A program made the position numbers and the translations under genes. Positions 1-28,797 of a stretch of 58,339 bases of DNA are shown piece by piece; position 1 is the first letter of the stretch; every line of letters starts with the position of its first letter. Source of the stretch: an uncultured Burkholderiaceae bacterium (GTDB lineage: Bacteria; Pseudomonadota; Gammaproteobacteria; Burkholderiales; Burkholderiaceae_E); assembly GCA_963976885.1 (NCBI GenBank), contig CAXBNM010000001.1:1-58339 (forward strand), given 5' to 3'. A model generated the notes under the pieces. The model was not told the origin of the DNA and searched no databases. It worked only from the letters and a program-made list of their open reading frames with translations.

Positions 1-502
1 CCGACGGTTCGGTTGAGTGATTTAGGTCGTTTGCTCCGGGTGTGCTGGAAAGATCTGGTTGAGGTCCGCTGGGTAACTGCAGAACGAACACTAGGGTCTC
101 AGTTAACAGTTGACAATGACTGCAAGATGGCTTGGGTCAAACGGGCTAACCAACTAGCCCAGTTACTCTTCGGTATCACTCCGTCACGGACTGTTTCGTC
201 CATTGGGGCAACGATAGGCGCTAATTGCCACATGTAGAAATACCCAATTGCCGGTAGTGAGGGTATTCTTTGCCATATTATGAAATTTTGGTACTGGCTG
301 GATTGGTGCCCTCGGTTTTGCAAATTTACATTTGTTTGCAATTGTTGACTCCTTCCGGTGGCCGTTGCAGCGTGATTGGCGCGGATTTTCGGTAACTGGG
401 GGCTGTCATGCCGGGAACGCGGGATGGGCAGCTCTGACCCATTGGCCGACACTGCGGGGATACCAAAAACAGGCGACTGCGCCTGATAAAGAGAGAAACT
501 CC

Positions 503-7355: not shown

Positions 7356-7459
7356 GAGACGAGCTTTCACCGGTAGGGCAATCAGTTGGCAGGGCATTGA
7401 AACAATACCGCAATACCGTGAACTGAGTCGGCCGGCGAGCCCGTTCGGTTCAGATTGGC

Positions 7460-14800: not shown

Positions 14801-17800
14801 TGCCTACCGTGGTGCCTGCCGCTGAATTCTCAAGCACCTGATTGTTCGCGTCGTCACTGTCCGTGTCGACGATCGCTGAGAGCGGCTCGTTGACATTGGT
14901 TACGTCGATGTCAAAAGTGCGTGTAACCGTGGAGCCATCGCTGGAAGTGGCTCGAATCTGAATCTGGTGTTGAGTGCCGTTTGGTGCCTCGTAGTTGATC
15001 TCGGCTCCGGTGGCCACCGAGACGACGCCCGTTGTCCCGTCAATTGCAAACAGGCCGCTGGGGTCGGACTCCATGGTGTAAGTTATGGACTGTCCGAGAT
15101 CGGCATCGCTCGTATGTGCTGTGATGCCAACCAGTGTTCCCTGGCTGGCATTCTCATTGACTGAGTTCGTGGCGCCATCGTCATCAATGATTGCCGATAA
15201 AGGCTCGTTGACATTATTGATCTGAACAGTGAAGTCGCGTTCGGAGTAAGAGCCGTCTGAAGAATCAGCTCGTATGCGTATCGTATGTTCTGTCGCGTTT
15301 TCGTAGTTGAAGCTTGCTCCGTCATTGACGGTCACTACGCCAACCGTGTCGTCCGCAATCTTGAACAGATTGCCAGGGTTGGAACTGATCGAATAGGTTA
15401 CTGTATCGCCGGCATCGGGGTCCGTGGCCGATGCTGTAATACCGACAGGCGTATTGGCGGCGGCGTCCTCTGAAATCGCGTCGACCCCTGCATTCGCATC
15501 AATGATCGCGGATATGTCGTCGTTAACGTTGGTCACGGAGATGGTGAACGTACGCTCGGTAAACGTGCCGTCGCTGGATGTGGCACGCACGACTATCATG
15601 TAGTCATCACCAGGCGTCCACGTGAAGCTTCCGGCCTGATTGACGGTCACGGTGCCGTCTGCGGGGTCGACAATCTCGAATCGATTGCCAGGATTACTGG
15701 TCAGGCTGTAGCTGATCGTGTCGCCATCGTCAGGATCGATCGCCAACGCGGAAATGCCAACCGATGTACCTCCGGTGGCCGTTTCAGGGATCAGATTGCT
15801 CGTGCCGTCAATGTCTGCAATTGCCGAAACGCTTTCATTGACATTGGCTATGCTGATCGTGAACGTCGCGGTCGTGAAGCTGCCGTCCGTTGATGTTGCC
15901 CGTACCTGGATCTGATGTTGCTGGGCTGCTTCAAAGTCAAGAGAAGCGGCCGCGACGACACTGACGACACCGGTAGATCCGTCAATGGCAAATCGGTTGC
16001 CTGCGTTGTCGTCGAGGGTATAAGTGATGGTTTCGCCTTCAGGATCCTGCGCCATCGCCGTGATCAATGCCAACGTCCCCGCAGGCGAGTTCTCTGCCAC
16101 TGTGTTCGGCGACGCGTCAGCGTCGCTGATCGGCCCCACAGATTCGTCGATATCGGTCACGCTGATCGTAAAGATTTTCGTTGTACTGCTGCCGTCCGAT
16201 GAGCGGGCTTCGACGGTCACATCATGAGTATCGGCGTCTTCGAAATTGATGGGTGTATTGCCACTGACGGTGATGATGCCGGTATTGGCATCGATGATGA
16301 ACCGATCCCCCGCATTGTCGATGAGAGAATAGGTGACGCTGTCACCGTCCTGATCAAGCGCTGCTGCCGTCACGCCGACAGTGGTTCCTGCTGCGGCGTT
16401 CTCGGCGATCCGGTTCACCGTAGCATTGTCGGCATCGCTGATTGCCGAGACCGGATCATTGGCATCGAGCACATTGATGGTGAAGACTCGATCACTGTAG
16501 TCGCTGGGCGACCCGGAAGACTGGGCGCGCACTTCGATGTCGTGCTGTTGGGCTGCTTCGTAGTCAATAGGCGTATTGCCGCTCACCGTCACGACACCGG
16601 TGGCGACATCGATGACGAAACGCCCTCCGGCGTCATCGAGCAGCGAGTATTCGACGGTCTCGCCGGCATCTTCGTCCTCAGCGTATGCCGTAATTCCTGT
16701 CAAAGTTCCTGCGCCGGCATTCTCGGTGACACTGTTCGGTTCGGTGATATCAGTGTCCGTGATTGCTGATACCGGATCATTCGCGTCGGTGACGGCGATG
16801 GTGAAGTCTTGTTGCGTGGAATCATCCGGGGACGTGGCCGCGACTGTTATCTGATAGCTGCCCACTCCTTCAAATTGAAGAGGCGTGTTGCCGGTATAGG
16901 TGACGACGCCGGTATTGGCGTCGACTGCAAAGCGGCCTCCCGCGTCATCGGTCAGCGAATAAGACACCGTTTCTTCGTCGCCATCGATTGCGTAGGCGGT
17001 AAGGCCGACTGCAGTGCCTGCGCTGGCGTTTTCGGCTATTGCGTTGGCGTCCGCTGTGTTGGCGTCGGTAACCGGCGAAAGTGGCTCAGGGACATTGCTG
17101 ATGCTGACGACGAAAAAGGCCTCGCTGAAACTGCCATCCGTTGAACTGGCGCGTATCTTGACCTGATGGGAGTCGTCGTTCTCGAAATCGAAGCTCGCCG
17201 TGTTGCTTACGGAAACCACGCCGCTACTGGCATCGATGACGAATCGGTTTCCAGGGTTGCTTATCAGTTGGTACGTAACGGTATCGTCGGGGTCAGGGTC
17301 GGTTGCCTGGGCGGTGATGCTGGTCTGCGTGCCGGCGGTGGCATTTTCGGGCAGTTTCGCGTCAGACGCGTTGCTGTCGGTTACCGCTCCAACCGTGCTG
17401 TCGTTATCCCGATTGGTCCATGGAATAACGACATCCGGCATCGCCTGATAATTGACGTCCGTACTGCCGGCAGTTGAAAAGGTGATGTTGTAAATAATGT
17501 CGCCGTCAATGATTCCGTCTTCGACCGGCGTAACAGAGAATGTTTGCCACGCGCTCCAGTTGCCCGAAGTGACGTTAAGCGTGGCCTGGCTCAGCGTACC
17601 TTCAGTTGGATCCGAGATCGTGGCGGTGATTGTGACGTCTGCGGTCGGCTGTGAGCTCAGTGCTACCCGAAAATCGACGCTGTTGCCTCCTTCGACAGTG
17701 AACTGACCACCAGGAAAATCAAAGTTGAGCGATACCGGCTCGAAGGCGGAGTTTGCCAGAAGCACACCTTGAGTGTCCGCATCGCTCTTGCCGCTGTAGA

Positions 17801-19622
17801 ACACTGTGCTGGTGGTGCCGTGAAGCACGATTTGCGGATTACTCTGTAAACGATGGGAGCTGACATTGATGCGTTGCGGATCGCTTATCGCGACGCCGGC
17901 AGCGTTGAAGTGGCGAACATAGACGTCGCTGTCGGACGTGAATGCTGGTATGGAATCCCAGGCAACGACGATGTTGCCACTGGCATCAAGCGCAATGCTC
18001 GGACTCGACTGATACTTGTCAAAGGATTGAAAATATTCGGTGTCTGATCCGATTTGATCCAGATTGGCGTCAAGTCTCTTGAAATACATGGCGTTGTCCA
18101 GAAAACCTTCCTGCCATGCCACGACGATCGCACCATTGTCGTTCATTGCTATTGCTGGACGTGCCAGAAAACCATGGCTGTGCACGTTGAGCTTGACTGT
18201 GTCTACCAGCCCGTTGCTGCCAATCTTCGCCAGTTCAAGATCGGGTGTTCCGGTGCCGGGGTCTTTGACGAACGCAATGACCGCCGTCTGGGTAGTGTTG
18301 TTGATGGCCACCACCGGAGTTTCATACTGTCGATTGTCGTTGGTCGACGCCAGCTGATCAGAGTTCAGCTCCTGATTGCCCTGGTCGTCAAAGGTCGCAT
18401 ACAGTATCTGGTCGTCGTCGCCGCCTTCTTCCTGCACCCACGTAATGATGAATCGTCCGTTATCGAACAGTGCGACTGCCGGTGTGCGCTGATCGTCCTT
18501 TGTTTCACGGCTGATGCGGAATTCGTACGGGTTCTCGTATACGGCGCCGCTCTTGCCAGCGCTCAGCGCGAGGCTTGGGCGGGCCATTGGTGTGCCATCT
18601 GCTGCGAAGCGCTGGGCATACAGGCCGTTGTTGTCGCCGTCCTGGTCTTCGGCCTCCCACACGACGATGAACTGTCCGCTGGCGTTCATGGCGACCACCG
18701 GGTTGGAGCGTTCCGTGCTGCCGCTTCGCGCTATTTCAGTGGCATTGCCGGTCGGCTGCCCATTGGTGTCGTACAGCCGGAAGTACACCTGATTGTTCTG
18801 ATCACTCTCCCAGACGACGACTACCGATTGGCCATTGGTGGCGATCTGATTGGCGCCGGTGGCTTCGCTGACATGTTGATTTCCTGCGGTACTCTGATTG
18901 ACTTGCTCGGTACGGGGGTTGTCGCCGAAGTTCAGGGTGCCGAGCCAGTTGTCGGTGGTCGCAGTGCTCAGGCCCGTAAAAGACTCGATGAGGCCGGTGC
19001 TGTCTTCCAGTTCCCAGTCGCCGCCCAGCGACTCATGGCCGGTGGTGTCGTTACTTGCCGCAACGTCGGCGCCGGTCAACTCGCTCAGCTCGTCGATCAG
19101 TGCCAGACCGGAGCCATCGGCGGTGAGGTCGCAGCCAAAGATCAGCAGATCGGCGTCGGTGCTCAGCAGCGGACGCCAGGAGGCAAATTGTTCGGCGAGT
19201 GCAGGCAGGGTGGTGTTTGACACCGATTGATTGCCCAACTCGAAACTGCCCGCCGCGCCATGGGTATAGATCTGTACGGATTGATATTGCTGATCGCTGC
19301 CAGTCAGGGCCTCGGTGACCGCCTGCAGGCCGTCGCTGTCTGCATCAAGCACCAGGTACTCGATCTGTACGCCGGCTTCAGCCTGGGCGGTGATGTCGGC
19401 AACGAGTGAATCCAGGTCAGGCAGGCGCTCATCGAAAACGGCCAGGGTCCAGGCATTGGCTTGCTGCTGACTTGCCGTGTTGGCGCTCTCTTGCGGTTCG
19501 GTGTGGGCGACGATGCTGGCATCTGCCGGCATCACATCAACCGGGCCGAGCAGCGCGGCGGCGTCGGCCGAATACAGGATGCGCTGGGCAACCTGTTCCG
19601 CAATGGGTGGGCGACCGCTCAA
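11847..19622 (-). CDS. Giant surface/adhesin-like protein: DUF4347, propeller-like repeats, Calx-beta-like domain, 11 cadherin-like repeats, acidic tract, C-terminal TM region
   Basis: Uninterrupted ORF 11847..19703 (2618 codons from a GTG). The preferred start is TTG at 19622: GGAG lies 8 nt upstream and the start sits 4 nt after the upstream stop. Alternative starts are GTG 19703 (77-nt overlap) and ATG 19532. The DUF4347-like segment reads LAVFDERLPDLDSLV...IYTHGAAGSFELG...LLIFGCDL...GGDWELE. The roughly 102-aa repeats follow the pattern VNEPLSAI.D.D...EN..AGT.VGITA.A.D.D.G.T.TYSL...F.ID..TGVVTV. Confidence 0.93.
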   Translation of the reverse strand: MSGRPPIAEQVAQRILYSADAAALLGPVDVMPADASIVAHTEPQESANTASQQQANAWTLAVFDERLPDLDSLVADITAQAEAGVQIEYLVLDADSDGLQAVTEALTGSDQQYQSVQIYTHGAAGSFELGNQSVSNTTLPALAEQFASWRPLLSTDADLLIFGCDLTADGSGLALIDELSELTGADVAASNDTTGHESLGGDWELEDSTGLIESFTGLSTATTDNWLGTLNFGDNPRTEQVNQSTAGNQHVSEATGANQIATNGQSVVVVWESDQNNQVYFRLYDTNGQPTGNATEIARSGSTERSNPVVAMNASGQFIVVWEAEDQDGDNNGLYAQRFAADGTPMARPSLALSAGKSGAVYENPYEFRISRETKDDQRTPAVALFDNGRFIITWVQEEGGDDDQILYATFDDQGNQELNSDQLASTNDNRQYETPVVAINNTTQTAVIAFVKDPGTGTPDLELAKIGSNGLVDTVKLNVHSHGFLARPAIAMNDNGAIVVAWQEGFLDNAMYFKRLDANLDQIGSDTEYFQSFDKYQSSPSIALDASGNIVVAWDSIPAFTSDSDVYVRHFNAAGVAISDPQRINVSSHRLQSNPQIVLHGTTSTVFYSGKSDADTQGVLLANSAFEPVSLNFDFPGGQFTVEGGNSVDFRVALSSQPTADVTITATISDPTEGTLSQATLNVTSGNWSAWQTFSVTPVEDGIIDGDIIYNITFSTAGSTDVNYQAMPDVVIPWTNRDNDSTVGAVTDSNASDAKLPENATAGTQTSITAQATDPDPDDTVTYQLISNPGNRFVIDASSGVVSVSNTASFDFENDDSHQVKIRASSTDGSFSEAFFVVSISNVPEPLSPVTDANTADANAIAENASAGTAVGLTAYAIDGDEETVSYSLTDDAGGRFAVDANTGVVTYTGNTPLQFEGVGSYQITVAATSPDDSTQQDFTIAVTDANDPVSAITDTDITEPNSVTENAGAGTLTGITAYAEDEDAGETVEYSLLDDAGGRFVIDVATGVVTVSGNTPIDYEAAQQHDIEVRAQSSGSPSDYSDRVFTINVLDANDPVSAISDADNATVNRIAENAAAGTTVGVTAAALDQDGDSVTYSLIDNAGDRFIIDANTGIITVSGNTPINFEDADTHDVTVEARSSDGSSTTKIFTISVTDIDESVGPISDADASPNTVAENSPAGTLALITAMAQDPEGETITYTLDDNAGNRFAIDGSTGVVSVVAAASLDFEAAQQHQIQVRATSTDGSFTTATFTISIANVNESVSAIADIDGTSNLIPETATGGTSVGISALAIDPDDGDTISYSLTSNPGNRFEIVDPADGTVTVNQAGSFTWTPGDDYMIVVRATSSDGTFTERTFTISVTNVNDDISAIIDANAGVDAISEDAAANTPVGITASATDPDAGDTVTYSISSNPGNLFKIADDTVGVVTVNDGASFNYENATEHTIRIRADSSDGSYSERDFTVQINNVNEPLSAIIDDDGATNSVNENASQGTLVGITAHTSDADLGQSITYTMESDPSGLFAIDGTTGVVSVATGAEINYEAPNGTQHQIQIRATSSDGSTVTRTFDIDVTNVNEPLSAIVDTDSDDANNQVLENSAAGTTVGITAHATDTDSGRTITYSLEPGSDSAFVIDANTGVVSVDSGATINYESSAQRFITVRASSDDGSTATRIFSIDVIDVNEGLSAIADLDGAANSIAENSVAGTATGITARATDTDQGRTITYSLDPDSSPLFGIDANTGVVTVSNGANIDFETSESHQITVRATSNDGSTITRTFNVAVTNVNEGLNPIIDSDATPDAVAENAVAGTPVGITVQTTDTDNGRIITYELNSNPDALFAIDANTGVVTVSDAAVFDFETDLPHQINVLARSSDGSTIQRSFTIAVSDVNEAPSSNGNTRTIDESTSAALTVADFAFADQDAYDTLSAVRIDTLPTLGTLSLNGTGVAVGQEISQASLTAGELVFTPVEHGVGSPYASFRFQVADSAGLFSTSGALLTFNVINTVDYSPTITSNNGGDSASITLPDRTTAVTTVRANDPDSPTLFYTIAGGTDAAAFNINNTSGALSFRFLPTADNPMDADGDNIYHVLVSASDGVRADTQSLRVGVAVNPDGLTAQWSGNRQIMEDQTSPWGQSLNFADPLNASVLELNLAVSSGSLSLRQTTGLTFTQGDGVADQSMRLSGSVSDIAAALLTLDYRPDQDVNGNWAAQASFIDPNDPTRSVTISTTIEIIAVNDSPSPAGSMWTSAEPGTERVLSTAVLSATDIEDDASELHFVVLNTPSQGSLLLDGVKLNTGDRFTQQQLSEGKVSYLADKATGSNDSFEIQIEDSEGGRSGVIKVGIESLQPSIVPDEPAEAPDNEVADDSATDNDDADGDDDADDEINNDGRADTPGGDSDNASGRAQAALVEDSASDGQSPIERNAQSALLAGRREIPPAVQGLSDNQESERRFDLPVDQLQTERSYGIEQVDFSSEYFSRQLQSIKDEIQAQTSFDRQIVTSSFALSSTLSIGYVLWLIRSGALLSSVLATMPAWRSIDPLPVLSNMPVAEGGTGDDESIESMLEQARQQAADDSPADAPDLASDSPRATL
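13945..17395 (-). repeat. Array of 11 in-frame tandem cadherin-like repeat units (about 306 bp each) inside the giant gene
   Basis: Eleven successive protein units are counted from GAVTDSNASDAKLPENATAGT (about 17395) to AVSDVNEAP (about 13945). The units are clearly diverged at the DNA level. Confidence 0.85.
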
Positions 19623-19626
19623 GTTT

Positions 19627-20583
19627 TCAGCTCCGTGCTGCCGGCGCTGGCCCGGTATCAAAACTGACCCGGCATCGGGCGCCTGCCGGTACCGTGAGCG
19701 CACTGTTGTCGACCAGCATCTGCGCCCGGAAGGTCGAGCTTGCCGGATCGATGAAGGCGTCGACCTGATCGACGATTGCGGTCAATTCCATCGGCTCGGC
19801 GGTCTCGGTATTGACCGTGCCGATCATGCCGGCGGCGATGCGCCCGTAGTAACGCGCGGGGGCCACCACTTCGACGCGCAGCATATCAAGGCGGATCACC
19901 CGTGCAATGGTGCGGCCATCGGCACGCTCGCCGGCGCTGACCATCTGCTCGGCCACGACGCCGTCGATCGGACTGCGCACGTAACGCTGATCCAGTTGCT
20001 GGGCGGCAACCTGATGCTCGCGGTCGGCAATGCGGTGGCGTTCACGGGCCTGCTCGATGCGATAGGTGGCGACGTCGAGCTCGCCCTCGGCCAGTTCCAG
20101 TTCGAGTTGAGCGCCGTAACTCAGTTCATTGAGTGACTTCATGCGCGCGACCTTGCGTTGGGCCATCTGATGGGTAGCCCGGGCCGCGGCGATTTCGGCA
20201 CGGGCGGCTGCGCGTGCCTCGGCTGCGAGCAGCAAGGCCTGTTCAACCGAGTTGTCGAGCACGGCCAGGATCTGACCGCGTCTGACCCGATCGCCACGCT
20301 TGACGCGCACCTCGGCAAGAATGCCGGGGGCACCGGCGCCGATATCGGCAGCGGTATGGGGCGTAATCAGACAGCCGAACCCATCCTCGGAATAGTTGCC
20401 CGATTTGCCGTGGGCCGGATTGCCGAGCTGTTTGCGGCTGGAGGCATTGGCCGGACGATTCGGCATTTCCATCGCACGCGGTGTGTCCGGGCGTGTCTGC
20501 GCGCTCGATAATCCTGTGCTCACAGCAAGCAGGCCGGAGGTGAGGGCGACGGCGATCAGGCCCGTGTGTCTGATACGGTTCAT
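19627..20583 (-). CDS. Periplasmic membrane-fusion / adaptor protein (HlyD/RND-MFP family)
   Basis: Signal peptide MNRIRHTGLIAVALTSGLLAVSTGLSSAQ. Lipoyl-like hairpin GILAEVRVKRGDRVRRGQILAVLD, a coiled-coil stretch, then VRSPIDGVVAE. It starts 13 nt after the SecA-like stop. Confidence 0.88.
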   Translation of the reverse strand: MNRIRHTGLIAVALTSGLLAVSTGLSSAQTRPDTPRAMEMPNRPANASSRKQLGNPAHGKSGNYSEDGFGCLITPHTAADIGAGAPGILAEVRVKRGDRVRRGQILAVLDNSVEQALLLAAEARAAARAEIAAARATHQMAQRKVARMKSLNELSYGAQLELELAEGELDVATYRIEQARERHRIADREHQVAAQQLDQRYVRSPIDGVVAEQMVSAGERADGRTIARVIRLDMLRVEVVAPARYYGRIAAGMIGTVNTETAEPMELTAIVDQVDAFIDPASSTFRAQMLVDNSALTVPAGARCRVSFDTGPAPAARS

Positions 20584-20596
20584 TTCTCGACTTCCA

Positions 20597-22543
20597 TTAT
20601 TGACGGCTCAGTGTAGAAAAGTGCAATTCACGCGAGTTATTGAGATCTGCCCGGAGGCGTTTGACTCTTTGTGAGCGGTCATGCCACTGCCAGAGTTGTT
20701 GTCTGAGATGCACAATGACAGCCGCCAGCGGTCGGTAACGAATGACCGGATGGAGCATCCGTAGCAGTCGACTGCTTGTGTCAGCGCGGTAATTTGCTTG
20801 TTCGTGTTGATTCAGAACACACCAGTGCTCTGCGCTGCCTGGTTCACCCTGGCGGGCCGCACGGCCCGTCATTTGCCGGTCGATTCGAGCACTGCGATTC
20901 GATTGCAGGTTCAGCACGTGCAGCCCACCGGCCTGGAGGGCCACCGAATCGGGTTTGATGTCGGTACCGCGACCGGCGATCTGGGTTGAAATGGTGATAC
21001 GGCCCGCTTTGCCGGCCTGACTTATCTGTTCGGCTTCGGTGTCGGCATTGGCGGCGTCGAGCAGATTCGCCTCAATGCCGGCGGAATTGAAGGCCAGTGC
21101 CAATGCACGGGCTTGAGCAACGTTATCGGTGCCAATCAGTACCGGCCGGCCGTGGGCGGCAAGCGTTCGGGCGCGTTGGAGAACGGCGACGCAGAGTTGT
21201 TGCTGGTTTGAAAACAGGCGATGACCGAAGTGACGCCGTTGCGAGGGCTGGTGTGGTGCTACTCGACTGACGCGCAGGCCATAGGATTTTCGGATTTCGC
21301 CGCGAACCTCATGCAAGGTCCCCGAAAGACCACACAAGTGGTGGTAGCGGGCAAAAAAGCGTGGATAACTCAGACCGCTGCGAGCGCTGGATTCGCCGGG
21401 AGGCGGCAGGGATTCCTTGGCGCAGATCAGGGCTTGCAACAGGCCGGGCAAAACCCGGCCTTCGGCAACGCGGCCGGTAGCGGCGTCGATCAAGGCGATC
21501 GATTCATCACGCACCAGGTAATCAACATCGCGGCGCAAGACGTACAAGGCGACCAGCGCATGGCTGATGACCTCGGTACGGTAGTCGGCATGAAACCAGA
21601 GCTGATCGAAACCCGGGTGCAGGGCGGCCAGGCGTTTCATTGCCTGCGGCCTGATGGTGGCACTGCGCCGTTCGGGGTGACAGTCAAAGTCCTGGCGCGG
21701 CGTCAGTTGCCCGGCCAGGGCCAGCGCCAGGGCAGGGTCGACATCAACCAGGGCCTTGGCGACCGGTTCGGCAAGGACCAGCGGAATCGACGCTTCGTCG
21801 ATCAGCAGACAATCGGCTTCATCGACAATGGCAACGCACAAACCGCGCAGCAAATGCGACGGCGTGCCAGGCGGATCGGCGGCTTCCTTGCTGTCCTGAT
21901 CGCGCAGGTAATCAAAGGCGCAGGTTTTGGCGGTCGCATAACACACGGCCTGCTGCCAGGCCTGGCGTCGTTGCGGCGGCGTCATGGTGGCGGTGGCGGC
22001 GGCGCAGTTCAGCCCCAGTGCTGCAAAAAAGTCCTGATGGTCGGCGGCATCACGGCTGGCCAGATAGTCATTGGCGGTGAGTACATGGACCGGTGCTCCG
22101 GTCATGGCCAGCACCGCCGCGGCCAGCGCCGCGGCCAGGGTCTTGCCCTCACCGGTAGCCAACTCGACCAATTGCTGGTTCAGGAGCAGGGCTGCGGTGG
22201 TGAACTGATTCGGATGAGGGCTGAGTCCGCGGGTGCGCGCATAGTGCTGGGCAACACAGGCCAGCGCAAGCGCACAGCTTGCTTCGTTCAAACCGAGACG
22301 GGCCAGCGCCCAGCGCACACGGCTGCTATTGATCGGGGCGCCGCCGGCCAGTTGCAAAGCCCGCCGGGCGACCCGGTGCGGGTTGCGCAGCGGTTGGCGG
22401 CGAGCGCGTACCGGATAGTCGGTTTCGCGGGCTTGCGGGTAGACACCCCACACGGGGCCGGGCACGGCCGGGCGGCAGGGGCGTTGGCGACGCGATGACG
22501 CTTGGGCCGGCGGGCGGAGCCGGGGGGCGGTCAGTGTGCTCAT
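20597..22543 (-). CDS. SecA-like DEAD-motor ATPase lacking the SecA C-terminal scaffold/wing/CTL domains
   Basis: LVELATGEGKTLAAALAAAVLAMTGAPVHVLTANDYLASRDA matches the SecA NBD1 Walker A region. VAIVDEADCLLIDEASIPLV is the Walker B / DEAD motif. DYLVRDESIALIDAATGRV is PPXD-like. LSGTLHE...PVLIGTDNV...GRGTDIKP...GGLHVLN...RIDRQMTGRAARQGEPG is NBD2. The protein ends about 50 aa after NBD2. ATGA overlap with the upstream gene (22540-22543). Confidence 0.88.
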   Translation of the reverse strand: MSTLTAPRLRPPAQASSRRQRPCRPAVPGPVWGVYPQARETDYPVRARRQPLRNPHRVARRALQLAGGAPINSSRVRWALARLGLNEASCALALACVAQHYARTRGLSPHPNQFTTAALLLNQQLVELATGEGKTLAAALAAAVLAMTGAPVHVLTANDYLASRDAADHQDFFAALGLNCAAATATMTPPQRRQAWQQAVCYATAKTCAFDYLRDQDSKEAADPPGTPSHLLRGLCVAIVDEADCLLIDEASIPLVLAEPVAKALVDVDPALALALAGQLTPRQDFDCHPERRSATIRPQAMKRLAALHPGFDQLWFHADYRTEVISHALVALYVLRRDVDYLVRDESIALIDAATGRVAEGRVLPGLLQALICAKESLPPPGESSARSGLSYPRFFARYHHLCGLSGTLHEVRGEIRKSYGLRVSRVAPHQPSQRRHFGHRLFSNQQQLCVAVLQRARTLAAHGRPVLIGTDNVAQARALALAFNSAGIEANLLDAANADTEAEQISQAGKAGRITISTQIAGRGTDIKPDSVALQAGGLHVLNLQSNRSARIDRQMTGRAARQGEPGSAEHWCVLNQHEQANYRADTSSRLLRMLHPVIRYRPLAAVIVHLRQQLWQWHDRSQRVKRLRADLNNSRELHFSTLSRQ

Positions 22544-24735
22544 GACCAGCCCGGCGCCAGGCGCGTGTTGAATGTATGGCCGAGACTGCGCGCCGCTTGC
22601 AGCAGCGCACTGGTATAGCCGAAATCCAGCCGGACCCAGACTCGCTGACCCGGTACCAGTGAATTACCTGCTTGCGCGGGCAGCTTGAGATCGAGCTGAA
22701 AGGTGGGCGCCGCCGGGCGCAAGGCTGCGTCGGTGGTGCGGTCCAGTTCCACCGAGCCGCCAGCGCTGGCGGCAAACGCCTCGGCGGGCAGGGTGCTCAG
22801 TGCGGCGGGGGTAAAGCCACTGACCTCGGCCCGAACCGGCTTGGTGTTGTCGCGCGTGGCAAGCCGCGCCCAGATCGCGGGCTGGCCAGTCTGCCACTGC
22901 GGTAACAAGCGTGCCGCCTGGCTTGCATCGAGCATCGCCCGCAACTGCACCTGGCCTGGCGGCGGCGCTATGCCCAGAAGTTCACCGGCGGCCACGAAGC
23001 GGCCCGGCAAGTCGCTCGCGGGCGCAATGAGTCGGAACCGATCTGCGGTAGCCGGCTCGCGCACGCGGACCGTGAGTTGCTCGCGGCGCTCGCGCAGTTG
23101 GGTCAGGGTACGTTCGGCCTGGCGCAGCGATTCCGGATTGCTCCGCTGCGCGGCCGGCTCGGCCATGTTGCTGATCCATTGGCTGCGCGCTGCGTTAACG
23201 ACACCGCTCTGAACGCCGATGCGCGCATCAAGGAGCGGGTCGTGCATTTGCACGAGTGCTTGATTGTCGGTCTGAGCAGAGGCCGCGTCGCCGTGTACCG
23301 CGACAATATAGCCGGGTTGGCGGGCGCGTATGCGGGCGTCATCGGGCAGCCAGACGACCGCTTGTGCCAGGGAACGATCGGGCAGTGGCAGCAGCGCTGC
23401 GCCGAGCAGGGCACCGGCCAGCAATCCGGCGCGCAGGCCGAGTGTGGCGTTGCGGCCCGGCGAGCCGGTCAGTTGCAGTGCGCCGCGCAGCAGGCGCACC
23501 ACAGGCATGACGAACAGCATCAATATCGCCATCGCCATCAGTGCCAGCCCGGCAGCCCGAAAGTGGCTGCCGATCCAAAGCGCGAAGGTCGTGAGAATCG
23601 CCACGCGATAACACCAGGCAAGTGGCGCGTAGGCCAGCTGCCAGTATCGTTCAGTGGCATCGCAGGCCGGCATTGGCTGCGACACGCCGGTCAGCAGACG
23701 TAACCATCCCTGATGCCAGCGTTGATTGCTGCGTTCGCTCAGATTGGCCAGGCCGGTCAGATCGGTGAGGACATAGTAGCCATCGAAGCGAATGAGCGGA
23801 TTGCCGTTGAGAAAAACCGTCATTACGCTGCCGATCAGTGCTACCGCCAGCATCAGTTCGCGCCAGAGGCCGTCGGCCAGCAAGGTCCAGGCAATCAACG
23901 CCAGACTGGCCAGCAGCAGTTCGACGACGATGCCGGCGGCACTGACCGCGGCACGTTGTCGACCCGAAGTCAGCAGGTTGGCGTCACTGGCATCGACATA
24001 GGGGGCGGGCATCAGCATCAGCAGCGCGACGCCAAGTTCGCGGGTAGTGCCACCGAAATGGCGCAAAGTGATGCCGTGCGCCAATTCATGAATGATCTTG
24101 ACGAAGGGGTAGGCACACCAGAGCAGCAACCAGAATGACGGCCGGGCTGTCGCTTCGGAGATGGCCGGCGCCAGGGTGTCGAATTGCTGCAGCGCGCAGA
24201 GCAATGCCAGAGCGACGATCAGCGCTGCGCTGGCCAGTGCCCACGGACCCATCAGGTGACCGCCAAGGGCGTGCAAGCGTTCGATCAGTGCCGAGGGGTC
24301 GGCCAGGCGCCAGCGCGGTGCCAGCAGGTTGTGTTGCTGGCGCCGCGCCGCGGCGGTGTCTTCATCCCATTGTTGCTGGCGTTGGTCGAGATCGGGCCAG
24401 CTTTCGCAGTGCAGATAGCCTTGTCTTACCAGGCGGGCCAGAATCGGCATCAGTGCTTGCTGAGCCGGTAATTCGTCGGGCTGATGGCTGGCAACCCATT
24501 GCCAGATTTCATTGAGCGTGCGTTGCCCATCGCAACGCGCCACGATCGCCCAGGCCGCCTGATTCAAACGCAGCTGACCGCGTTGCTCGGGCCGGCTGAG
24601 CATGATCCAATGGGCGCCGCGCATGCGCTGCGCGGTAATCCGCACCTGGCGGACCAGGGCAGGTTTCAGGCTGCTCAGCCGGTACCATTGCGGGCTGTAC
24701 AGGCTGGTGGGGGCATCGGAGCGGGTCATCACCAT
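22540..24735 (-). CDS. Fusion protein: PqqD/RRE-like N-domain, polytopic M50-type zinc metalloprotease core, HlyD-like C-terminal region
   Basis: N-terminal segment LRLNQAAWAIVARCDGQRTLNEIWQWV...ILARLVRQGYL follows the PqqD pattern. Multiple TM helices carry HELAHG (HExxH) and NGNPLIRFDGYY (the M50 NxxPxxxLDG-type motif). The C-terminal third resembles an MFP barrel. Candidate starts are ATG 24735, ATG 24729 and GTG 24753; all overlap the upstream stop at 24729-24731. Confidence 0.85.
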   Translation of the reverse strand: MVMTRSDAPTSLYSPQWYRLSSLKPALVRQVRITAQRMRGAHWIMLSRPEQRGQLRLNQAAWAIVARCDGQRTLNEIWQWVASHQPDELPAQQALMPILARLVRQGYLHCESWPDLDQRQQQWDEDTAAARRQQHNLLAPRWRLADPSALIERLHALGGHLMGPWALASAALIVALALLCALQQFDTLAPAISEATARPSFWLLLWCAYPFVKIIHELAHGITLRHFGGTTRELGVALLMLMPAPYVDASDANLLTSGRQRAAVSAAGIVVELLLASLALIAWTLLADGLWRELMLAVALIGSVMTVFLNGNPLIRFDGYYVLTDLTGLANLSERSNQRWHQGWLRLLTGVSQPMPACDATERYWQLAYAPLAWCYRVAILTTFALWIGSHFRAAGLALMAMAILMLFVMPVVRLLRGALQLTGSPGRNATLGLRAGLLAGALLGAALLPLPDRSLAQAVVWLPDDARIRARQPGYIVAVHGDAASAQTDNQALVQMHDPLLDARIGVQSGVVNAARSQWISNMAEPAAQRSNPESLRQAERTLTQLRERREQLTVRVREPATADRFRLIAPASDLPGRFVAAGELLGIAPPPGQVQLRAMLDASQAARLLPQWQTGQPAIWARLATRDNTKPVRAEVSGFTPAALSTLPAEAFAASAGGSVELDRTTDAALRPAAPTFQLDLKLPAQAGNSLVPGQRVWVRLDFGYTSALLQAARSLGHTFNTRLAPGWS

Positions 24736-26105
24736 GGTTGCCAGCGCCACCACTGACGCGCCAGCGCATCGAGCAGATCACCGGCCCAGCGGGTAAGCAG
24801 ATTCTGGCGTGGACCGGGCAGGTGAACCGTACCGCGCTGGCCGGACTTGAGCGCATGCGTCGAACCGATCAGACGCGCATGAACCGGGACGACGTTGCGG
24901 CCATCAATGACACTGGCCACAGGCGCTACCCGGTTGACCTCGATATCGATCCGGTCCCAGGGCAGGGCGCTGGGCGCAAGTTGGCCACGCTGCCCGATGT
25001 GTACCTGCGCAATGTCGTTCTCATCGACTTCGATAAGTACCCGCAAGGAATCGTCCGGGGCCAGCGTGAACAATGCCTCGCCGCGCGTGACCGGCATGTT
25101 CAGGCGTTCGATCAGATCACCGTGCAGGACGGGGGCCGCCATCGGGGCCCGAATATCGGCCTGAGCGATCTGCATGTCCAGCAAGGCAATACGGGCGTTG
25201 GCCTGGTCGATCTGAGCACGCGCAGTGGCCATGGTCGATCGGTCGTTGCTCACCATGGCGGCGTTCACCGCAACCTGATGCTGAGCCAGGTCGGCCTGCA
25301 ACTGATTGCGCTCGAGTTCAAGTTCATCGGTACGCAAAGTCGCCAGCAGCTGGCCGGCTTGCACGATATCGCCGGGTCGGACCTGAACTGATTCGAGAAA
25401 GCCGTCGACCGGTGCGGTGATTTCACGTTCGATGGCGCCTTCCAGATGCGCCTGACTGCTGATGGGTTGCTCGAACGGAATCAGCAAACCCACGGCGACG
25501 CCAATCGCACCGGCCAGCAACCAGCGACGGCGTCGGCGCGCTGCCGGTCGGGTGTTGCGAGCCTGGCGCAGCAGGCGAGCCCATAGCAGGCGATGAACAG
25601 GCTCATCGGTTTGTTCGTTCAGGCGCAGCAGTCGCGAACACGGTGCCAGCAAGTGCTCGAGAAAGCTGATCAGCAAACCCAGACGTTGCCGGCTCTGAGC
25701 GCTGGCGGGCGGTAAAGTCGCGGCGGGCATTTCCACACAGAGCGCGCCGACCGCCTGGTTATCGAGCGCCATCGGCACGCTGAGTACGCTGCCGCCACTC
25801 TGGTGGGCCAGGGCGCGTTGCGCGGCGGTGATGGCGCCACTTGGATGCTGACCGAGGCTGTGCACACTGCATTGCGCGAACATGGCTTCATCGGCGGCGG
25901 CCAGCAGGCTGTTGCGCAGCTCGGTGTTCAGTGCGGCAACTGGCGCGTTCGAGACGGCAACCAGTTCAACTTGCTGGCTTTGCGCGTGCTGCCACGCCAG
26001 ACTCACCCGACTGGCGCCAACCGCCTGTGCCACGCCGGCACACAGCGCCGCGGCGGCGGCGGTAAAACCATCGCCTTCGCTGACCTGCTGATGAATCTGC
26101 AGCAT
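24729..26105 (-). CDS. GAF-domain-containing membrane-fusion protein (HlyD family)
   Basis: Cytoplasmic GAF-like N-terminus (GASRVSLAW...VELVAVSN...LSVPMALDNQAVGALCVEM). Polybasic RRRRRW followed by TM helix LLAGAIGVAVGLLIPF. HlyD hairpin LESVQVRPGDIVQAGQLLATL, coiled coil, then IRAPMAAPV. The ATG at 26105 is preferred. The ORF extends to a TTG at 26231, but that extension is Arg/Pro/Ala-rich. Confidence 0.82.
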   Translation of the reverse strand: MLQIHQQVSEGDGFTAAAAALCAGVAQAVGASRVSLAWQHAQSQQVELVAVSNAPVAALNTELRNSLLAAADEAMFAQCSVHSLGQHPSGAITAAQRALAHQSGGSVLSVPMALDNQAVGALCVEMPAATLPPASAQSRQRLGLLISFLEHLLAPCSRLLRLNEQTDEPVHRLLWARLLRQARNTRPAARRRRRWLLAGAIGVAVGLLIPFEQPISSQAHLEGAIEREITAPVDGFLESVQVRPGDIVQAGQLLATLRTDELELERNQLQADLAQHQVAVNAAMVSNDRSTMATARAQIDQANARIALLDMQIAQADIRAPMAAPVLHGDLIERLNMPVTRGEALFTLAPDDSLRVLIEVDENDIAQVHIGQRGQLAPSALPWDRIDIEVNRVAPVASVIDGRNVVPVHARLIGSTHALKSGQRGTVHLPGPRQNLLTRWAGDLLDALARQWWRWQPW

Positions 26106-26455
26106 CCGGGCCGCGGTCAGGCCCGATGTTTCGTCCGGGTTACTGGTCGTGCCGCCGTTGCGCACAGGCGCGGCTCCGCCGGCGCGGGGCGCAGGCGATC
26201 GCAGCGGTCGGGAACGCAGAGCAACAGACAAGATTTTGGCTCAAATGACACTTGGAATGCCTAGTTTGGGCGGTGCGGCGCGGCTGCGGCGAGACTGGCC
26301 GGTGAGTGTCCGATAGGTGGTCACCGGACAGGTACCAGCGGCTCAGAATGCGATGTGAATGCAACCGGTATCCTTCGGGGATTCCGATTTTGCTCGGGCC
26401 GGCACAGGCCGCGGGCTTTCTACCCCTTTGATTGCACGTTAGCAAGGAGACAGCA

Positions 26456-27223
26456 ATGAAATTATTTGACATGACTGGCCAGACCGCCGTGGTGACGGGT
26501 TCCAGTCGCGGGATAGGCCTGGCCATTGCGCATGCGTTGGCCGCTGCCGGCGCCAATGTGGTGGTGTCCAGCCGCAAGGTCGACGCCTGCGAAGCGGCGG
26601 TCAAGGAAATCACCGCCGCCGGCGGCAAGGCCATCGCGGTGCCGGCCAATATTTCGCGTCGTGAAGACCTCGAAAATCTGGTCGCTGAGACCAAAAAGCA
26701 GTTCGGGCCAGTCAATGCGCTTATCTGCAACGCCGCCTCAAACCCTTACTTCGGCCCCAGTTCGGGCATGAGCGATGAGGTTTTCAGCAAGGTGATGCAG
26801 AACAATGTACTGAGCAATCACTGGTTGTCGCAACTGGTGTACCCCGACATGAAAGCCGCCGGCGGTGGCGCGATTGTTATCGTGTCTTCGATTGGCGGTC
26901 TCAAAGGCTCGTCCGAGATCGGCTTGTACTGCATCTCCAAGGCGGCCGATATGCAGCTGGCCCGCAACCTGGCGGTGGAGTGGGGCCCGGACAACGTTCG
27001 CGTCAACTGCATTGCTCCTGGCCTGATCAAGACCGACTTCGCCAAGGCCTTGTATGAAGACCCGAAGCGCAAGGCCGCGGCCGAAGCCCGTTATCCGTTG
27101 CGTCGTCTGGGTGAGCCCGACGATATTGCCGGCGTTGCCGTCATGCTGGCCAGCCGTGCCGGTTCGTTCCTGACCGGTCAGACGCTGGTTGTGGATGGTG
27201 GCGTGACCATTTCTGGCACCTGA
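26456..27223 (+). CDS. SDR-family oxidoreductase
   Basis: aaggaga RBS precedes the ATG at 26456. TGSSRGIG cofactor motif and YCISKAA (YxxxK) catalytic motif. Confidence 0.9.
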   Translation: MKLFDMTGQTAVVTGSSRGIGLAIAHALAAAGANVVVSSRKVDACEAAVKEITAAGGKAIAVPANISRREDLENLVAETKKQFGPVNALICNAASNPYFGPSSGMSDEVFSKVMQNNVLSNHWLSQLVYPDMKAAGGGAIVIVSSIGGLKGSSEIGLYCISKAADMQLARNLAVEWGPDNVRVNCIAPGLIKTDFAKALYEDPKRKAAAEARYPLRRLGEPDDIAGVAVMLASRAGSFLTGQTLVVDGGVTISGT

Positions 27224-27240
27224 GCAAGTGCGCTGACGGG

Positions 27241-27262
27241 CCGGCGCTAGCGGTAGCGCCGG
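27241..27262. terminator. GC-rich hairpin between convergent genes (possible bidirectional terminator, no T-tract)
   Basis: ccggcgcta (27241-27249) / tagcgccgg (27254-27262) with a 4-nt loop. It overlaps the stop of the minus-strand small ORF. Confidence 0.35.
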
Positions 27263-27594
27263 ATGCCGCGCGCACTGATGCGTTTGTGCGGGGCTTGTTC
27301 CCCGTACAGACAGCCATTGATACCGAGCAACCAGGATAAGGTAATCAGGGCGCAACCAATATCAATGATCAAACCGAAGTGATAGAACTGTTCGACATCG
27401 AACAGCGCATGGCTGAGCCGGACCGTCAGATAGCCGACCACAATTGTCGTCAGGACGTGAACAGTCCCCGACAAAGCGGTGCTTTCGAAAAAGTCGCGTA
27501 GTTCCTCGGCGATCAGGGTGGAGACGAAAAACAAACCGCACGGCACCGCGAACATGACGAGGAACAGGCCTAGCTGTAGCAAGCCGTTGGTCAA
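27247..27594 (-). CDS. Small hypothetical integral membrane protein
   Basis: The translation has 3-4 hydrophobic helices (LLQLGLFLVMFAVPCGLFFVSTLI, VHVLTTIVVGYLTV, GLIIDIGCALITLSWLLG). TTG start at 27594, or ATG at 27555. No recognised family. Confidence 0.45.
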   Translation of the reverse strand: MTNGLLQLGLFLVMFAVPCGLFFVSTLIAEELRDFFESTALSGTVHVLTTIVVGYLTVRLSHALFDVEQFYHFGLIIDIGCALITLSWLLGINGCLYGEQAPHKRISARGIRRYR

Positions 27595-27832
27595 CCTGAT
27601 GCCCCAAAGATGAAACGAGTCAAGGGGAGTGTGACCATTTTCCCACGCTGTTTATAGCAAGCGCGGGGCTAACGGCTGATGTTCGCTGATCGGTGGTGAG
27701 TGCTGCGAGAGTGCGTTGGTGCCAGCAGAATTCGGCCGGCGGCGGGCGGACCGTTCATCGGGCGCGCCCGTCCGCGCAGGGCCAAAGACGGGCCTCGCGC
27801 AGGTGTGGCAATCGGGTTAGAAGCTCAGTGTC

Positions 27833-28705
27833 TCAGGACTTGGCTTCGCCGATGGTGCCGGCTTTGACGGGCAAGTCGACAAATTTTGGCGCCCGCTTCT
27901 CGCGCTGGGCAAGCATGGCTTCGCCGATTTCTTCCAGATTCAGAAAACTGGCGTTCCAGATGCTGATGTAGTCGAGGGTGGCGGCCGTTGGATTGTCGCG
28001 AGCATGCGTGATGATTTTCTTGCAACCATAGACTGCCATCGGCGCCTTGCTGGCAATTTCGGTGGCGGTGGCCATTACCGCCTCCAGCATCGCATTCTGA
28101 TCGGGGTAAACCGCATTGACCAGACCCACCGATTTGGCTTCGTCGGCACTCATCCGGCGGCCGGTATAGGCCAGTTCCCGGGCAACACCTTCGGGAATGA
28201 GCTTGACGATGCGCGGAAAGGTGCCGACGTCAGCGGTCATGCCGATGTTGGTTTCAAAAATCGTGAAGAACGCATCGGCGGTGGCATAACGCATGCAACA
28301 AGCCGTGGTCAGATCGACGCCGGCGCCAATGCAGCCCCCCTGAATGGCGGCCAGTACGGGAATTCGGCATTGCTCGAGCGCGGTGAAGCTTTCCTGCATC
28401 ACCCTGACCCGATTGTAGAAATCGGCGCCGTGCTGAATGCGACGCTGGCGCTTGCCTTCGGGCGTGTCGTCAGCCGCGTTCTTGCCGTGCTGGCCGAACA
28501 TGTTGACATCGATGCCGCTGGAGAAATGCGGTCCCGTTGAGGAAATCACGATGACCCGGGCCAGCGACTGGCTGTCAATGTGTTCAATCACGCGCGGCAG
28601 TTCGTCCCAGAACTCACGCACCATGGCATTGCGCTTGTCGGGTCGGTTCAGCACGATATGCGCAATCTGATTTTCAATCGTCAGGTCAAAACAAGTCGCT
28701 TGCAT
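27833..28705 (-). CDS. Crotonase-family enzyme (enoyl-CoA hydratase / dienoyl-CoA isomerase-like)
   Basis: IAHIVLNRPDKRNAM...VISSTGPHFSSGIDV...LAAIQGGCIGAGVDL are typical crotonase-fold motifs. Confidence 0.88.
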   Translation of the reverse strand: MQATCFDLTIENQIAHIVLNRPDKRNAMVREFWDELPRVIEHIDSQSLARVIVISSTGPHFSSGIDVNMFGQHGKNAADDTPEGKRQRRIQHGADFYNRVRVMQESFTALEQCRIPVLAAIQGGCIGAGVDLTTACCMRYATADAFFTIFETNIGMTADVGTFPRIVKLIPEGVARELAYTGRRMSADEAKSVGLVNAVYPDQNAMLEAVMATATEIASKAPMAVYGCKKIITHARDNPTAATLDYISIWNASFLNLEEIGEAMLAQREKRAPKFVDLPVKAGTIGEAKS

Positions 28706-28797
28706 GAGACTTCCTTGTGGCTAAAGGTGAGAATGGATCGGGCAATCCGGATGGGCCGCTTGCTATTGGCGGCCTGGCGGGCATGGCCGGTGCGACT

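Follow-up and report, generated by a model that had tools for sequence, protein, structure and literature searches.

The subject of this study is a locus on the minus strand of a 58,339-nt stretch of DNA (hereafter the window) from an uncultured Burkholderiaceae bacterium (contig CAXBNM010000001.1 of assembly GCA_963976885.1). Four genes, g1 to g4, code there for a GAF-containing adaptor, a fusion of RRE/PqqD-like, M50-like and adaptor domains, a short SecA-like ATPase and an adaptor with a signal peptide; they are followed by g5, the gene of a giant cadherin-repeat protein. The explanation that we favour, with a probability of roughly 0.55, is that the locus is dedicated to this downstream giant and codes for an apparatus that spans the envelope, probably for export of the giant and for the processing of its leader. 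The domain content of the proteins, the intact catalytic motifs, the gene order, the adjacency of the giant gene and the occasional TolC-family neighbour were observed directly. The same is true of a further association: among the loci surveyed, the module tracks a short N-terminal motif of the giants, LEPR-XLL, and not the DUF4347 domain or gene size.

Organization of the coupled genes

Re-mapping of the open reading frames (ORFs) bore out the gene coordinates and the four junctions given in the first-pass annotation of the window, and showed that the coupling goes further: the unit comprises seven genes (g1 to g7), all on the minus strand, as are all the features located in them below, and all translationally coupled. 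The stop codon of g1 (24729-26231, divergent-GAF adaptor) and the ATG of g2 (22540-24735, RRE/PqqD-like, M50-like and adaptor fusion) overlap in the sequence ATGGTGA, the longest g2 ORF beginning at a GTG at 24753. An ATGA overlap (22540-22543) joins g2 to g3 (20597-22543), which codes for the short SecA-like ATPase of 648 aa, and a 13-nt gap (20584-20596) precedes g4 (19627-20583), the gene of the signal-peptide adaptor. The giant gene g5 (11847-19622) starts with a TTG at 19622, 4 nt past the g4 stop codon, and a GGAG Shine-Dalgarno sequence is present upstream of this TTG. Beyond it, two more ATGA overlaps, at 11847-11850 and 9262-9265, couple g5 to g6 and g6 to g7, respectively.

Conservation of the module

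A profile of the short SecA-like family yielded 80 genome loci, to which look-ups of exact proteins added three, giving 83 in all (single loci, here and below, are designated by L numbers). The adjacency and order of g1, g2 and g3 recur in 68 of the 83; the arrangement is therefore not due to chance, and the proposal that g1 to g4 form one unit, made from the window sequence, is upheld across phyla. The 15 loci without g2, several of which are short contigs or contain a canonical-length SecA (Bacillota, Actinomycetota), were left out of the counts. Among the 68 module loci, g1 is found in 65 and g4 in 48. They come from Burkholderiales, Methylophilaceae, Alphaproteobacteria, Desulfobacterota, Myxococcota, Planctomycetota, Verrucomicrobiota and Magnetaquicoccus, with gammaproteobacterial representatives in Frateuria, Kistimonas, Amphritea, Methylobacter and Granulosicoccus; rhizobial and roseobacter plasmids have the module as well, and its carriers include Methylorubrum extorquens AM1 (META1p2399-2402), Frateuria sp. 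Soil773 and Uliginosibacterium flavum KACC 17644. The layout of the window, with g4 followed by a DUF4347 giant gene, is that of most Burkholderiales loci. Elsewhere the giant gene precedes g1 and its repeats are of the RTX, Big_9/cadherin or laminin-G type.

Some genomes have two copies of the module (L001 and L036 in GCA_041396585.1; L057 and L084 in Roseisalinus antarcticus), one adjoining a giant gene and the other accompanied by a different giant gene or by none. Alphaproteobacterial loci contain, between a giant gene of 10-13 thousand aa and the module, a gene for a DUF3467 protein of about 100-110 aa with an invariant SxYCNVCN motif (L084:7784-8113; L085:7119-7448; L088:16775-17080; L091:17735-18076). 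This protein may be a chaperone or an adaptor; when it was considered as a SecB-like chaperone, no PDB sequence or profile match was obtained.

Association of the module with the LEPR-XLL motif

Alignment of the sequences preceding DUF4347 revealed, at the extreme N-terminus of the giants, the pattern [LIVMF]E[ED][LIVM]E[PQED]R[ILV]L[YFHL]SAD; the canonical LEPR-XLL leader peptide is LEELEPRILYSAD, and none of these leaders has a hydrophobic core. The corresponding NCBIfam model, NF012209 ('LEPR-XLL domain', cutoff 17 bits), scored above its cutoff in five of seven related giants (L003, L014, L033, L040 and L042, with 18-25 bits). A motif hidden Markov model (HMM) built here detected 38 ORFs at 12 bits or more, namely 37 in the related loci plus g5, and every one of them adjoins a module; the runner-up, taken as noise, reached at most 8.5 bits among 10,735 ORFs. 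A LEPR-XLL ORF thus adjoins the module in 37 of the 68 loci, a result which makes the link to giant-protein genes, suggested by the first-pass annotation for the window, a recurrent one. In nine further module loci an ORF of at least 1,000 aa continues beyond the upstream locus end. When only the loci with at least 4 kb of flank on both sides are considered, 21 of 31 have either a LEPR ORF or a large run-off ORF.

The motif is not confined to DUF4347 proteins. It was also found on giants without this domain (L065 of Verrucomicrobia, L079 of Planctomycetaceae, and L012, L078 and L080), with examples from Verrucomicrobia, Planctomycetaceae, Comamonadaceae and Magnetaquicoccus. For giants encoded upstream of the module the N-termini lie outside the fetched loci, and annotated plasmid records were read instead. 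On three plasmids, a motif-bearing giant of 8,148-12,737 aa is encoded directly upstream of the module: in Mesorhizobium ciceri R30 (10,518 aa, N-terminal ..HFEALEPRLLLSADF), in Pseudosulfitobacter sp. DSM 107133 (12,737 aa, N-terminal ..LETFEPRVLLSADL) and in Alisedimentitalea scapharcae (8,148 aa), where VEQLEPRLLLAADF lies in frame just upstream of the annotated methionine. The start of this last 'calcium-binding protein' appears to be mis-called (L089:926-1000, NZ_CP123586.1). When the roseobacter giants of 12,228 and 12,848 aa were looked for by protein search, no N-terminus was recovered, and their shorter homologues showed no LEPR motif.

The reciprocal survey started from the other partner: 80 metagenomic loci were fetched through the DUF4347 profile alone, 64 of which have at least 1.5 kb of upstream sequence. 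Module genes lie upstream in 38 of these 64. They accompany 33 LEPR-positive giants and are missing for seven, while the figures for LEPR-negative DUF4347 proteins are five with and 19 without. In this set, the presence of the LEPR motif predicts module adjacency with a Fisher odds ratio of 17.9 (p = 1.4e-6).

These counts bear on the idea that there is no coupling at all, the module being an envelope system, for efflux or otherwise, whose substrate is not a protein and which is brought next to giant genes by shared genomic islands. Some loci do lack a giant neighbour, g4 scores best with RND_mfp-type adaptors and L114 has an adjoining RND pump. However, the association is specifically with the LEPR motif rather than with large genes in general, the module has kept a polypeptide clamp (PPXD) and an RRE-like domain, and the genes of the window are translationally coupled, so that we hold this explanation to be highly improbable.

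In the window itself the leader, MSGRPPIAEQVAQRILYSAD (19563-19622), is a degenerate LEPR-XLL sequence (VAQRILYSAD) in a position equivalent to that of the leaders of related giants; it scores 12 bits with the motif HMM built here. A locus closely related to the window, L093, provides a comparison. At L093:12938-13276, which corresponds to 11847-19626 of the window, the giant gene is replaced by a 44-aa ORF (MNGQPPVTKMLGDRMLYSAD / MNGQPPVTKMLGDRMLYSADQQ...) that overlaps the start of the histidine kinase gene and is colinear with the first 20 residues of the window giant. This colinear remnant, together with the GGAG sequence, supports the TTG start of g5. L093 and its twin L094 look like the products of a deletion which removed the 7.8-kb gene body and spared the leader.

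The SecA-like ATPase

The domain assignments proposed from the window sequence are upheld: SecA_DEAD, PPXD and HlyD were matched directly, GAF through hhalign, and M50 and, as a probable assignment, PqqD through NF041824. For g3, Pfam gave SecA_DEAD (6.7e-60), PPXD, the preprotein cross-linking domain of SecA (4e-13), and P-loop_SecA (1.7e-30). The Walker A (GEGKT, 22139-22153), Walker B (DEAD, 21812-21823) and arginine finger (GRGTD, 20960-20974) motifs are invariant across 15 members of the family. The protein is nevertheless below every NCBIfam SecA or SecA2 equivalog cutoff (best score 357.9 bits versus cutoffs of 725-1493); its best match there is TIGR04221, mycobacterial SecA2 (1e-106), and in the PDB 4uaq (4.7e-75). 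The alignments with PDB SecA structures span residues 71 to about 589-594 only. In the AlphaFold2 (AF2) model (pLDDT 81.8), NBD1, PPXD and NBD2 are followed by a single C-terminal helix of 44 aa; there is no wing domain, no two-helix finger and no C-terminal tail, i.e. the SecA C-domain is absent. The model superposes best on a substrate-engaged SecA (6itc_A, TM-score 0.83). Shortness is a family trait, the 120 homologues listed having 533-725 aa and mostly 630-700 aa.

Members of the family also have an N-terminal extension of about 90 residues (1-90 in g3) not present in canonical SecA, with a conserved PGxVWGxYPxR motif in which P28 and P36 are invariant and W32 nearly so. It may be a docking site for g1 or g2.

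Could g3 simply be a SecA2-type motor that delivers the giant to SecYEG, with the adaptors, with or without TolC, acting afterwards and the M50 protein serving as leader peptidase? The match to mycobacterial SecA2 speaks for it, as do the fit of the g3 model to the SecY-engaged conformation, the fact that the module encodes no inner-membrane channel and the general knowledge that large adhesins of Gram-positive bacteria are exported through SecA2 systems. Yet g3 is devoid of the elements which contact SecY (the remainder of the helical scaffold, the wing domain and the two-helix finger), the leader lacks a hydrophobic core, and the coupling across phyla is to membrane-embedded adaptor fusions and not to a SecY paralogue. 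We judge this route unlikely, although it is the foremost of the alternatives.

The RRE-M50-adaptor fusion

The first two parts of g2 are best described by NF041824, the model of an RRE-M50 daptide protease, which matches residues 33-427 with an E-value of 1.1e-44 and a score of 153.2 bits against an equivalog cutoff of 300; TIGR03859 gave 28.5 bits against a cutoff of 46. The putative RRE/PqqD-like domain, at residues ~31-103, has a sub-threshold PqqD match and is modelled as three strands followed by three helices; PF05402 is present in many homologues of g2, which go under the name 'PqqD family peptide modification chaperone'. In the M50 core, the HExxH element (HELAH) lies at 24076-24090 and NGNPLIRFDG at 23779-23808. 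HExxH and NxNPLxxxD are kept unchanged in 25 homologues down to 20% identity; H215, E216 and H219 as well as N309, N311, P312 and D317 are invariant in the alignment (A2), and both motifs sit in predicted helices. The AF2 model (pLDDT 86.6) consists of a beta3-alpha3 N-domain, an S2P/M50-like helical membrane core and a C-terminal adaptor. This last part, a periplasmic adaptor with an alpha-hairpin (residues ~449-725), was recognized by Foldseek, the C-terminal third matching MexA, AcrA and MacA at 1e-9. Foldseek of the whole model returned adaptor matches only, with no domain-level structural match for the RRE, so that support for the RRE and M50 folds comes from sequence, motifs and secondary structure. 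The family is large, with 7,513 clusters (50% identity) at E<=1e-30, and almost all of the best 150 are full-length, at about 715 aa.

From the combination of an RRE-like domain, an intact M50 core and a conserved leader on the cargo, the N-terminal processing of the giant put forward in the first-pass annotation is plausible. The same features could be seen as those of a RiPP (ribosomally synthesized and post-translationally modified peptide) system, in which g2 and its partners mature and export a small unannotated peptide while the giant gene is an unrelated neighbour. In its favour, g2 is similar to the daptide protease MpaP and to YydH/LiaK, the epipeptide protease, HlyD-type proteins take part in bacteriocin export (TIGR03794 gave weak matches), and L093 keeps of the giant gene nothing but the 44-aa leader-bearing ORF. 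Against this, neither the window nor the related loci have modifying enzymes such as radical SAM or YcaO proteins; there is no conserved small ORF upstream, and the ORFs of at least 25 aa in 26000-29000 contain no leader-like motif; in many phyla, the proteins that bear the leader-like motif are 1,000-12,737 aa long; and the L093 peptide, being colinear with the N-terminus of the giant, looks like the remnant of a deletion. A RiPP-like function of this sort would be very surprising.

The adaptors and the outer-membrane channel

The periplasmic part of g1, of membrane-fusion/adaptor type, matches HlyD_3 (2.5e-15) and HlyD_D23 (2.7e-12) and follows a single transmembrane helix (residues 237-253; 25473-25523). 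On the cytoplasmic side, residues ~40-200 form a divergent GAF domain recognized by hhalign to distant orthologues only: the Pfam scan of the window protein gave no GAF match, and residues 40-238 align (hhalign probability 99.95%) with residues 163-362 of the L050 orthologue, whose Pfam GAF domain occupies residues 180-315. g4 scores 110.8 bits with TIGR01730 (RND_mfp, cutoff 94.9) and 3.9e-12 with HlyD_3; it is a periplasmic adaptor whose N-terminus (MNRIRH...LSSA/Q, hydrophobic segment at residues 7-25) is predicted to be a cleavable Sec-type signal peptide.

It had been noted that the window holds neither an ABC transporter nor a TolC-like gene, and Pfam, OEP-profile and LSGGQ-type scans were negative on both counts. 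No ABC_tran domain was found among 34 ORFs, no LSGG[QEMK] signature among 494 ORFs and no ABC transporter in the related loci inspected. A Pfam-confirmed OEP gene adjoins the module in nine of the 68 related loci, which supports an envelope-spanning duct. In classical type I systems tolC is often unlinked; for this reason and because of these nine loci, the lack of a TolC gene in the window has no diagnostic value. The apparatus of the window would need a TolC-family gene located elsewhere.

The giant protein and its C-terminus

The 2,591-aa product of g5 consists of the leader, DUF4347, an unassigned beta-rich region, about 12 cadherin repeats, an acidic tract and a C-terminal hydrophobic motif. 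Pfam gave DUF4347 (PF14252, 1.8e-41), Cadherin (6.2e-93, in 12 stretches), RibLong, Cadherin_3/4 and Big_9, and no HemolysinCabind (RTX) match. The cadherin, Rib-like and Big_9 stalk extends over approximately 12846-17390, with a VN(E/D)xxSAI linker every ~105 aa; no tandem repeat was found at the DNA level in the gene, and the cadherin repeats have diverged.

DUF4347 (18933-19448) is a putative CPD-like cysteine protease (clan CD). Its His and Cys residues (codons 19260-19262 and 19131-19133), invariant among 20 sequences as H67 and C110 of the alignment (A3), align with His186 and Cys240 of Pseudomonas aeruginosa Tce1 (PDB 9qpe_G, E-value 3e-4). Tce1 is a DUF4347 effector of the type VI secretion system in which these two residues are reported to superpose on the catalytic dyad of the TcdB CPD (PMC13323088). 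The giant may thus process itself through this domain.

The hydrophobic motif SSFALSSTLSIGYVLWLIRSGALLSSVLATMPAWRSIDPLPVL (11991-12119), which is followed by an acidic tail, is a candidate inner-membrane anchor or stop-transfer segment. The consensus ..GYVxWLxRGGxLLSSLLSSLPAWxxxDPLPVL was found in the DUF4347-type giants of L001-L004, L012, L015, L017, L018 and L025 and, in a looser form, in those of L033 and L052; it is not present in the alphaproteobacterial or RTX-type giants compared. RTX-type giants encoded upstream of modules (Amphritea, Desulfobulbus, Kistimonas; L034:1-5091, L037:1-5043, L050:2-5692) have another C-terminal feature, a short hydrophobic stretch and, after it, basic residues, located ~40-50 residues before the end (AALAGWKLASGER, LVAGCSGWGLASGRRK and AASLAWGTAALARRK).

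This C-terminal segment lends itself to a different scheme, of retention and release or of quality control: the M50 protein would cut it, or clear stalled copies of the giant, with g3 as unfoldase or extractor under c-di-GMP (cyclic di-GMP) control, and export would take another route. It is general knowledge that M50/S2P proteases cut transmembrane segments containing helix breakers, and R-G-G stands at the centre of the motif; co-transcription is predicted for the GAF, histidine kinase and GGDEF-EAL genes, and the whole resembles the logic by which LapD and LapG are known to control LapA. But the C-terminal motif is restricted to one class of cargo whereas the N-terminal LEPR-XLL is universal, and it is N-terminal leaders that RRE domains read; moreover, three adaptor domains and adjacent TolC-family genes favour a conduit, and the cargo shows no other export signal. 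This scheme seems to us a little less likely still than delivery to SecYEG.

Weight of the evidence and proposed pathway

Several observations weigh against a dedicated export apparatus. As to its components, no S2P/M50 core is known to act as a protein conduit, and no component that could form the protein-conducting channel was identified; likewise, no OEP/TolC gene was detected in the window by Pfam scans of 34 ORFs or by an OEP profile search of all ORFs. The substrate of the M50 protein is ambiguous, since the cargo has a putative protease of its own. Some of the key matches are below threshold in the window proteins: for g2, PqqD (PF05402) is at 1e-3 (19.9 bits versus a gathering score of 23.4) and Peptidase_M50 (PF02163) at 3e-3 (17.6 versus 27.2), and g5 is not matched by NF012209. 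Neither is the association perfect. In ten of the 31 module loci with ample flanks, no giant gene adjoins the module; the window's closest relative (L093/L094, from two independent samples with identical flanks) has kept g1 to g4, the histidine kinase and the GGDEF-EAL gene intact and has lost the giant gene; and six of the 16 DUF4347 clusters that extend far enough upstream are of the form g1-g2-g4-giant, with no SecA-like or other ATPase nearby. Lastly, a search of the literature found no experimental follow-up on any member of the module, and in Methylorubrum extorquens AM1 the GAF gene is the only one expressed in exponential phase (PMC4452313).

The six clusters leave the role of the SecA-like protein as an obligatory energiser unproven: in them, the motor must be either encoded elsewhere or dispensable. 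They are metagenomic loci (L104, L114, L134, L136, L140 and L160), and their upstream genes are unrelated (SHMT, AcrB with OEP, MATCAP, BrkB, DUF6603, or histidine kinase and response regulator).

With these points in mind, the dedicated apparatus that we favour could work as follows. The unfolded giant would present its short, non-hydrophobic leader (LEPR-XLL, degenerate in the window) to the cytoplasmic RRE of g2, which would bind it as RRE domains bind the leader peptides of RiPPs. The chain would then be threaded, N-terminus first, by g3, which has kept the ATPase lobes and the PPXD clamp and lost the C-domain directed towards SecY. The M50-like core of g2 and the single-pass g1 would constitute the inner-membrane assembly, and the adaptor domains of g1, g2 and g4 a periplasmic duct leading to a TolC-family channel encoded elsewhere in the genome. 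The leader might be removed by the M50 site of g2, by the cysteine-protease-like DUF4347 domain of the cargo, or by both. In the DUF4347/Burkholderiales class, the C-terminal hydrophobic motif would stop transfer, so that the cadherin stalk stays attached to the cell. Surface or biofilm control of the c-di-GMP type may act on the system through the GAF domain of g1, the histidine kinase g6 and the GGDEF-EAL protein g7.

A broader generalization, which we advance tentatively and at somewhat less than even odds, is that LEPR-XLL is the export leader of an unrecognized pathway independent of ABC transporters, read by an RRE, usually threaded by a SecA paralogue and using a three-adaptor duct and a TolC-family channel for some of the largest bacterial proteins. 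Its cargo would range here from 2.6 to 12.7 thousand residues, and the motif is also found on Chlorochromatium proteins of 20,647 and 36,806 aa. Giant surface proteins without a Sec signal or a type I C-terminal signal are common. The LEPR-XLL link turns what was vaguely a 'secretion-related locus' into a testable system, which would have a defined cargo and a defined signal of 12 residues, the RRE as candidate receptor, and candidates for the motor and the peptidase. If the proposal is true, it would amount to a new secretion route in diderm bacteria, to the first demonstration of a SecA paralogue that operates outside SecYEG and to a new use of RiPP-type leader recognition for proteins that are thousands of residues long.

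Regulatory genes and surroundings of the unit

The membrane-bound PAS hybrid histidine kinase encoded by g6 (9262-11850) has the Pfam composition HisKA-HATPase-REC-Hpt. The REC-GGDEF-EAL protein encoded by g7 (7460-9265) has intact GGDEF, EALIR and DDFGTG motifs, as expected for c-di-GMP turnover. Orthologues of g6 are syntenic in 11, and those of g7 in 10, of the 68 module loci, in addition to L093. The upstream limit of the unit is marked by a divergent SDR gene (Pfam match; 26432-27223, plus strand), and the operon promoter is presumed, from position only, to lie in the intergenic region between it and g1 (26232-26431). A sigma-70 scan placed no site there, and its site counts equalled the shuffled expectation; over 7000-26900, sigma-70 and intrinsic terminator scans likewise gave counts equal to the shuffled expectation and are uninformative on the operon limits.

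Directly downstream of g7, 4287-7397 (minus strand) codes for a 1,036-aa protein with a WD40 beta-propeller and a caspase domain (Peptidase_C14), which is syntenic in L093. A 1,120-aa ORF at 332-3694 (plus strand) has no Pfam or PADLOC match, and the counterpart position in L093 holds a 1,054-aa gene. PADLOC, run on these two proteins, gave a weak caspase match only (2.4e-8), and a defence system is not implied. Further away, a 608-aa ORF (36998-38824, minus strand) has an internal duplication and a lipoprotein-like N-terminus.

Comparison with known systems

The combination of genes in the module had been taken for an undescribed one; the same four-gene locus was in fact reported by Kamneva, Poudel & Ward (PLoS One 2015, PMC4452313). 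Their in-silico study described, in several phyla, a locus of GAF-HlyD, Peptidase_M50-HlyD, secondary SecA_DEAD and HlyD-Biotin_lipoyl genes, sometimes with an adjacent OEP gene, and one Chlorobi species is listed there with a secondary SecA_DEAD. In their proposal, a type I-like system without ABC transporter draws its ATPase activity from SecA_DEAD, with the M50 protein as a possible pore; they thus reached the same idea on ATPase and pore independently. The window contains every element of such a locus (a short, distinct SecA_DEAD protein, M50-HlyD, GAF-HlyD and HlyD/Biotin_lipoyl, in the conserved order) and is a further member of it, with cargo and regulators attached. The four proteins, their order, the phyla, the occasional OEP gene and the roles proposed for the ATPase and the M50 protein are the same; the difference is that the window adds, in one coupled operon, the giant gene and the c-di-GMP two-component genes. 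Mention of a cargo, a giant, cadherin, an adhesin, PqqD or RRE, LEPR-XLL or DUF4347 was found neither in the paper nor in its supplements. What appears to be new is the cargo-signal link, which connects LEPR-XLL with the fusion of RRE, M50 and adaptor; it was not found in the papers searched.

Two other reports touch on parts of the system. The symbiosis proteins of Chlorobium chlorochromatii (36,806 and 20,647 aa) carry LEPRxLL and 'lack known signals'; they have SapC and TolC neighbours, and a horizontally acquired secA (Cag_1676) belongs to the co-expression cluster (bioRxiv 10.64898/2026.03.19.712371). The authors proposed a sap-like type I route and did not cite the Kamneva module. A SapC-family gene (L089:1258-2055) also adjoins the LEPR-XLL giant of A. 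scapharcae, as Cag_662 stands beside the Chlorochromatium giants (same preprint), and may be a further recurrent partner. In Omnitrophota and Actinobacteriota, giant proteins with embedded SecA_DEAD and PPXD domains have been described, for which self-export was suggested (West-Roberts et al., bioRxiv 10.1101/2023.11.21.568195). There too, a motor without scaffold and wing domains is associated with giant proteins; it is a domain of the giant itself, whereas the motor of the window is encoded by a separate gene.

The type I systems of giant adhesins (LapA-LapBCE, SiiE-SiiCDF, HlyBD-TolC) share with the window locus the alpha-hairpin adaptors, a neighbouring giant repeat adhesin, in some loci a TolC-family partner, and c-di-GMP-linked regulation, of which the LapD/LapG control of LapA is the known example. 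They differ in that the window module has no ABC transporter and has three adaptor-type proteins instead of one; its candidate signal (LEPR-XLL) is N-terminal, not C-terminal and uncleaved, and its cargo lacks RTX repeats; transport would probably proceed from N to C, with a C-terminal anchor in place of an N-terminal retention plug.

With the accessory Sec systems (SecA2, SecA2-SecY2-Asp) the module has in common a specialized SecA paralogue for large surface proteins, in which motor and PPXD are conserved. Unlike them, it resides in diderm hosts and its partners are adaptor fusions; g3 is without wing, two-helix finger and C-tail, and no SecY or Asp family match was obtained in 34 ORFs of the window or in the annotated neighbourhoods. 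The RiPP leader peptidases of M50 type (daptide MpaP, NF041824; YydH/LiaK, NF058609) have the same succession of a PqqD-like element and an HExxH core; g2 stands apart by its fusion to an adaptor, by a score at half the NF041824 equivalog cutoff, by the lack of accompanying tailoring enzymes and by a presumed substrate of 2.6-12.7 thousand residues. Finally, with the CPDs of the MARTX, TcdA and TcdB toxins and with Tce1, the DUF4347 domain of g5 shares a His/Cys pair that aligns with His186/Cys240 of Tce1 and the dyad of the TcdB CPD, but in a different setting: it belongs to an adhesin-like protein, where it is N-terminal and comes right after the leader.

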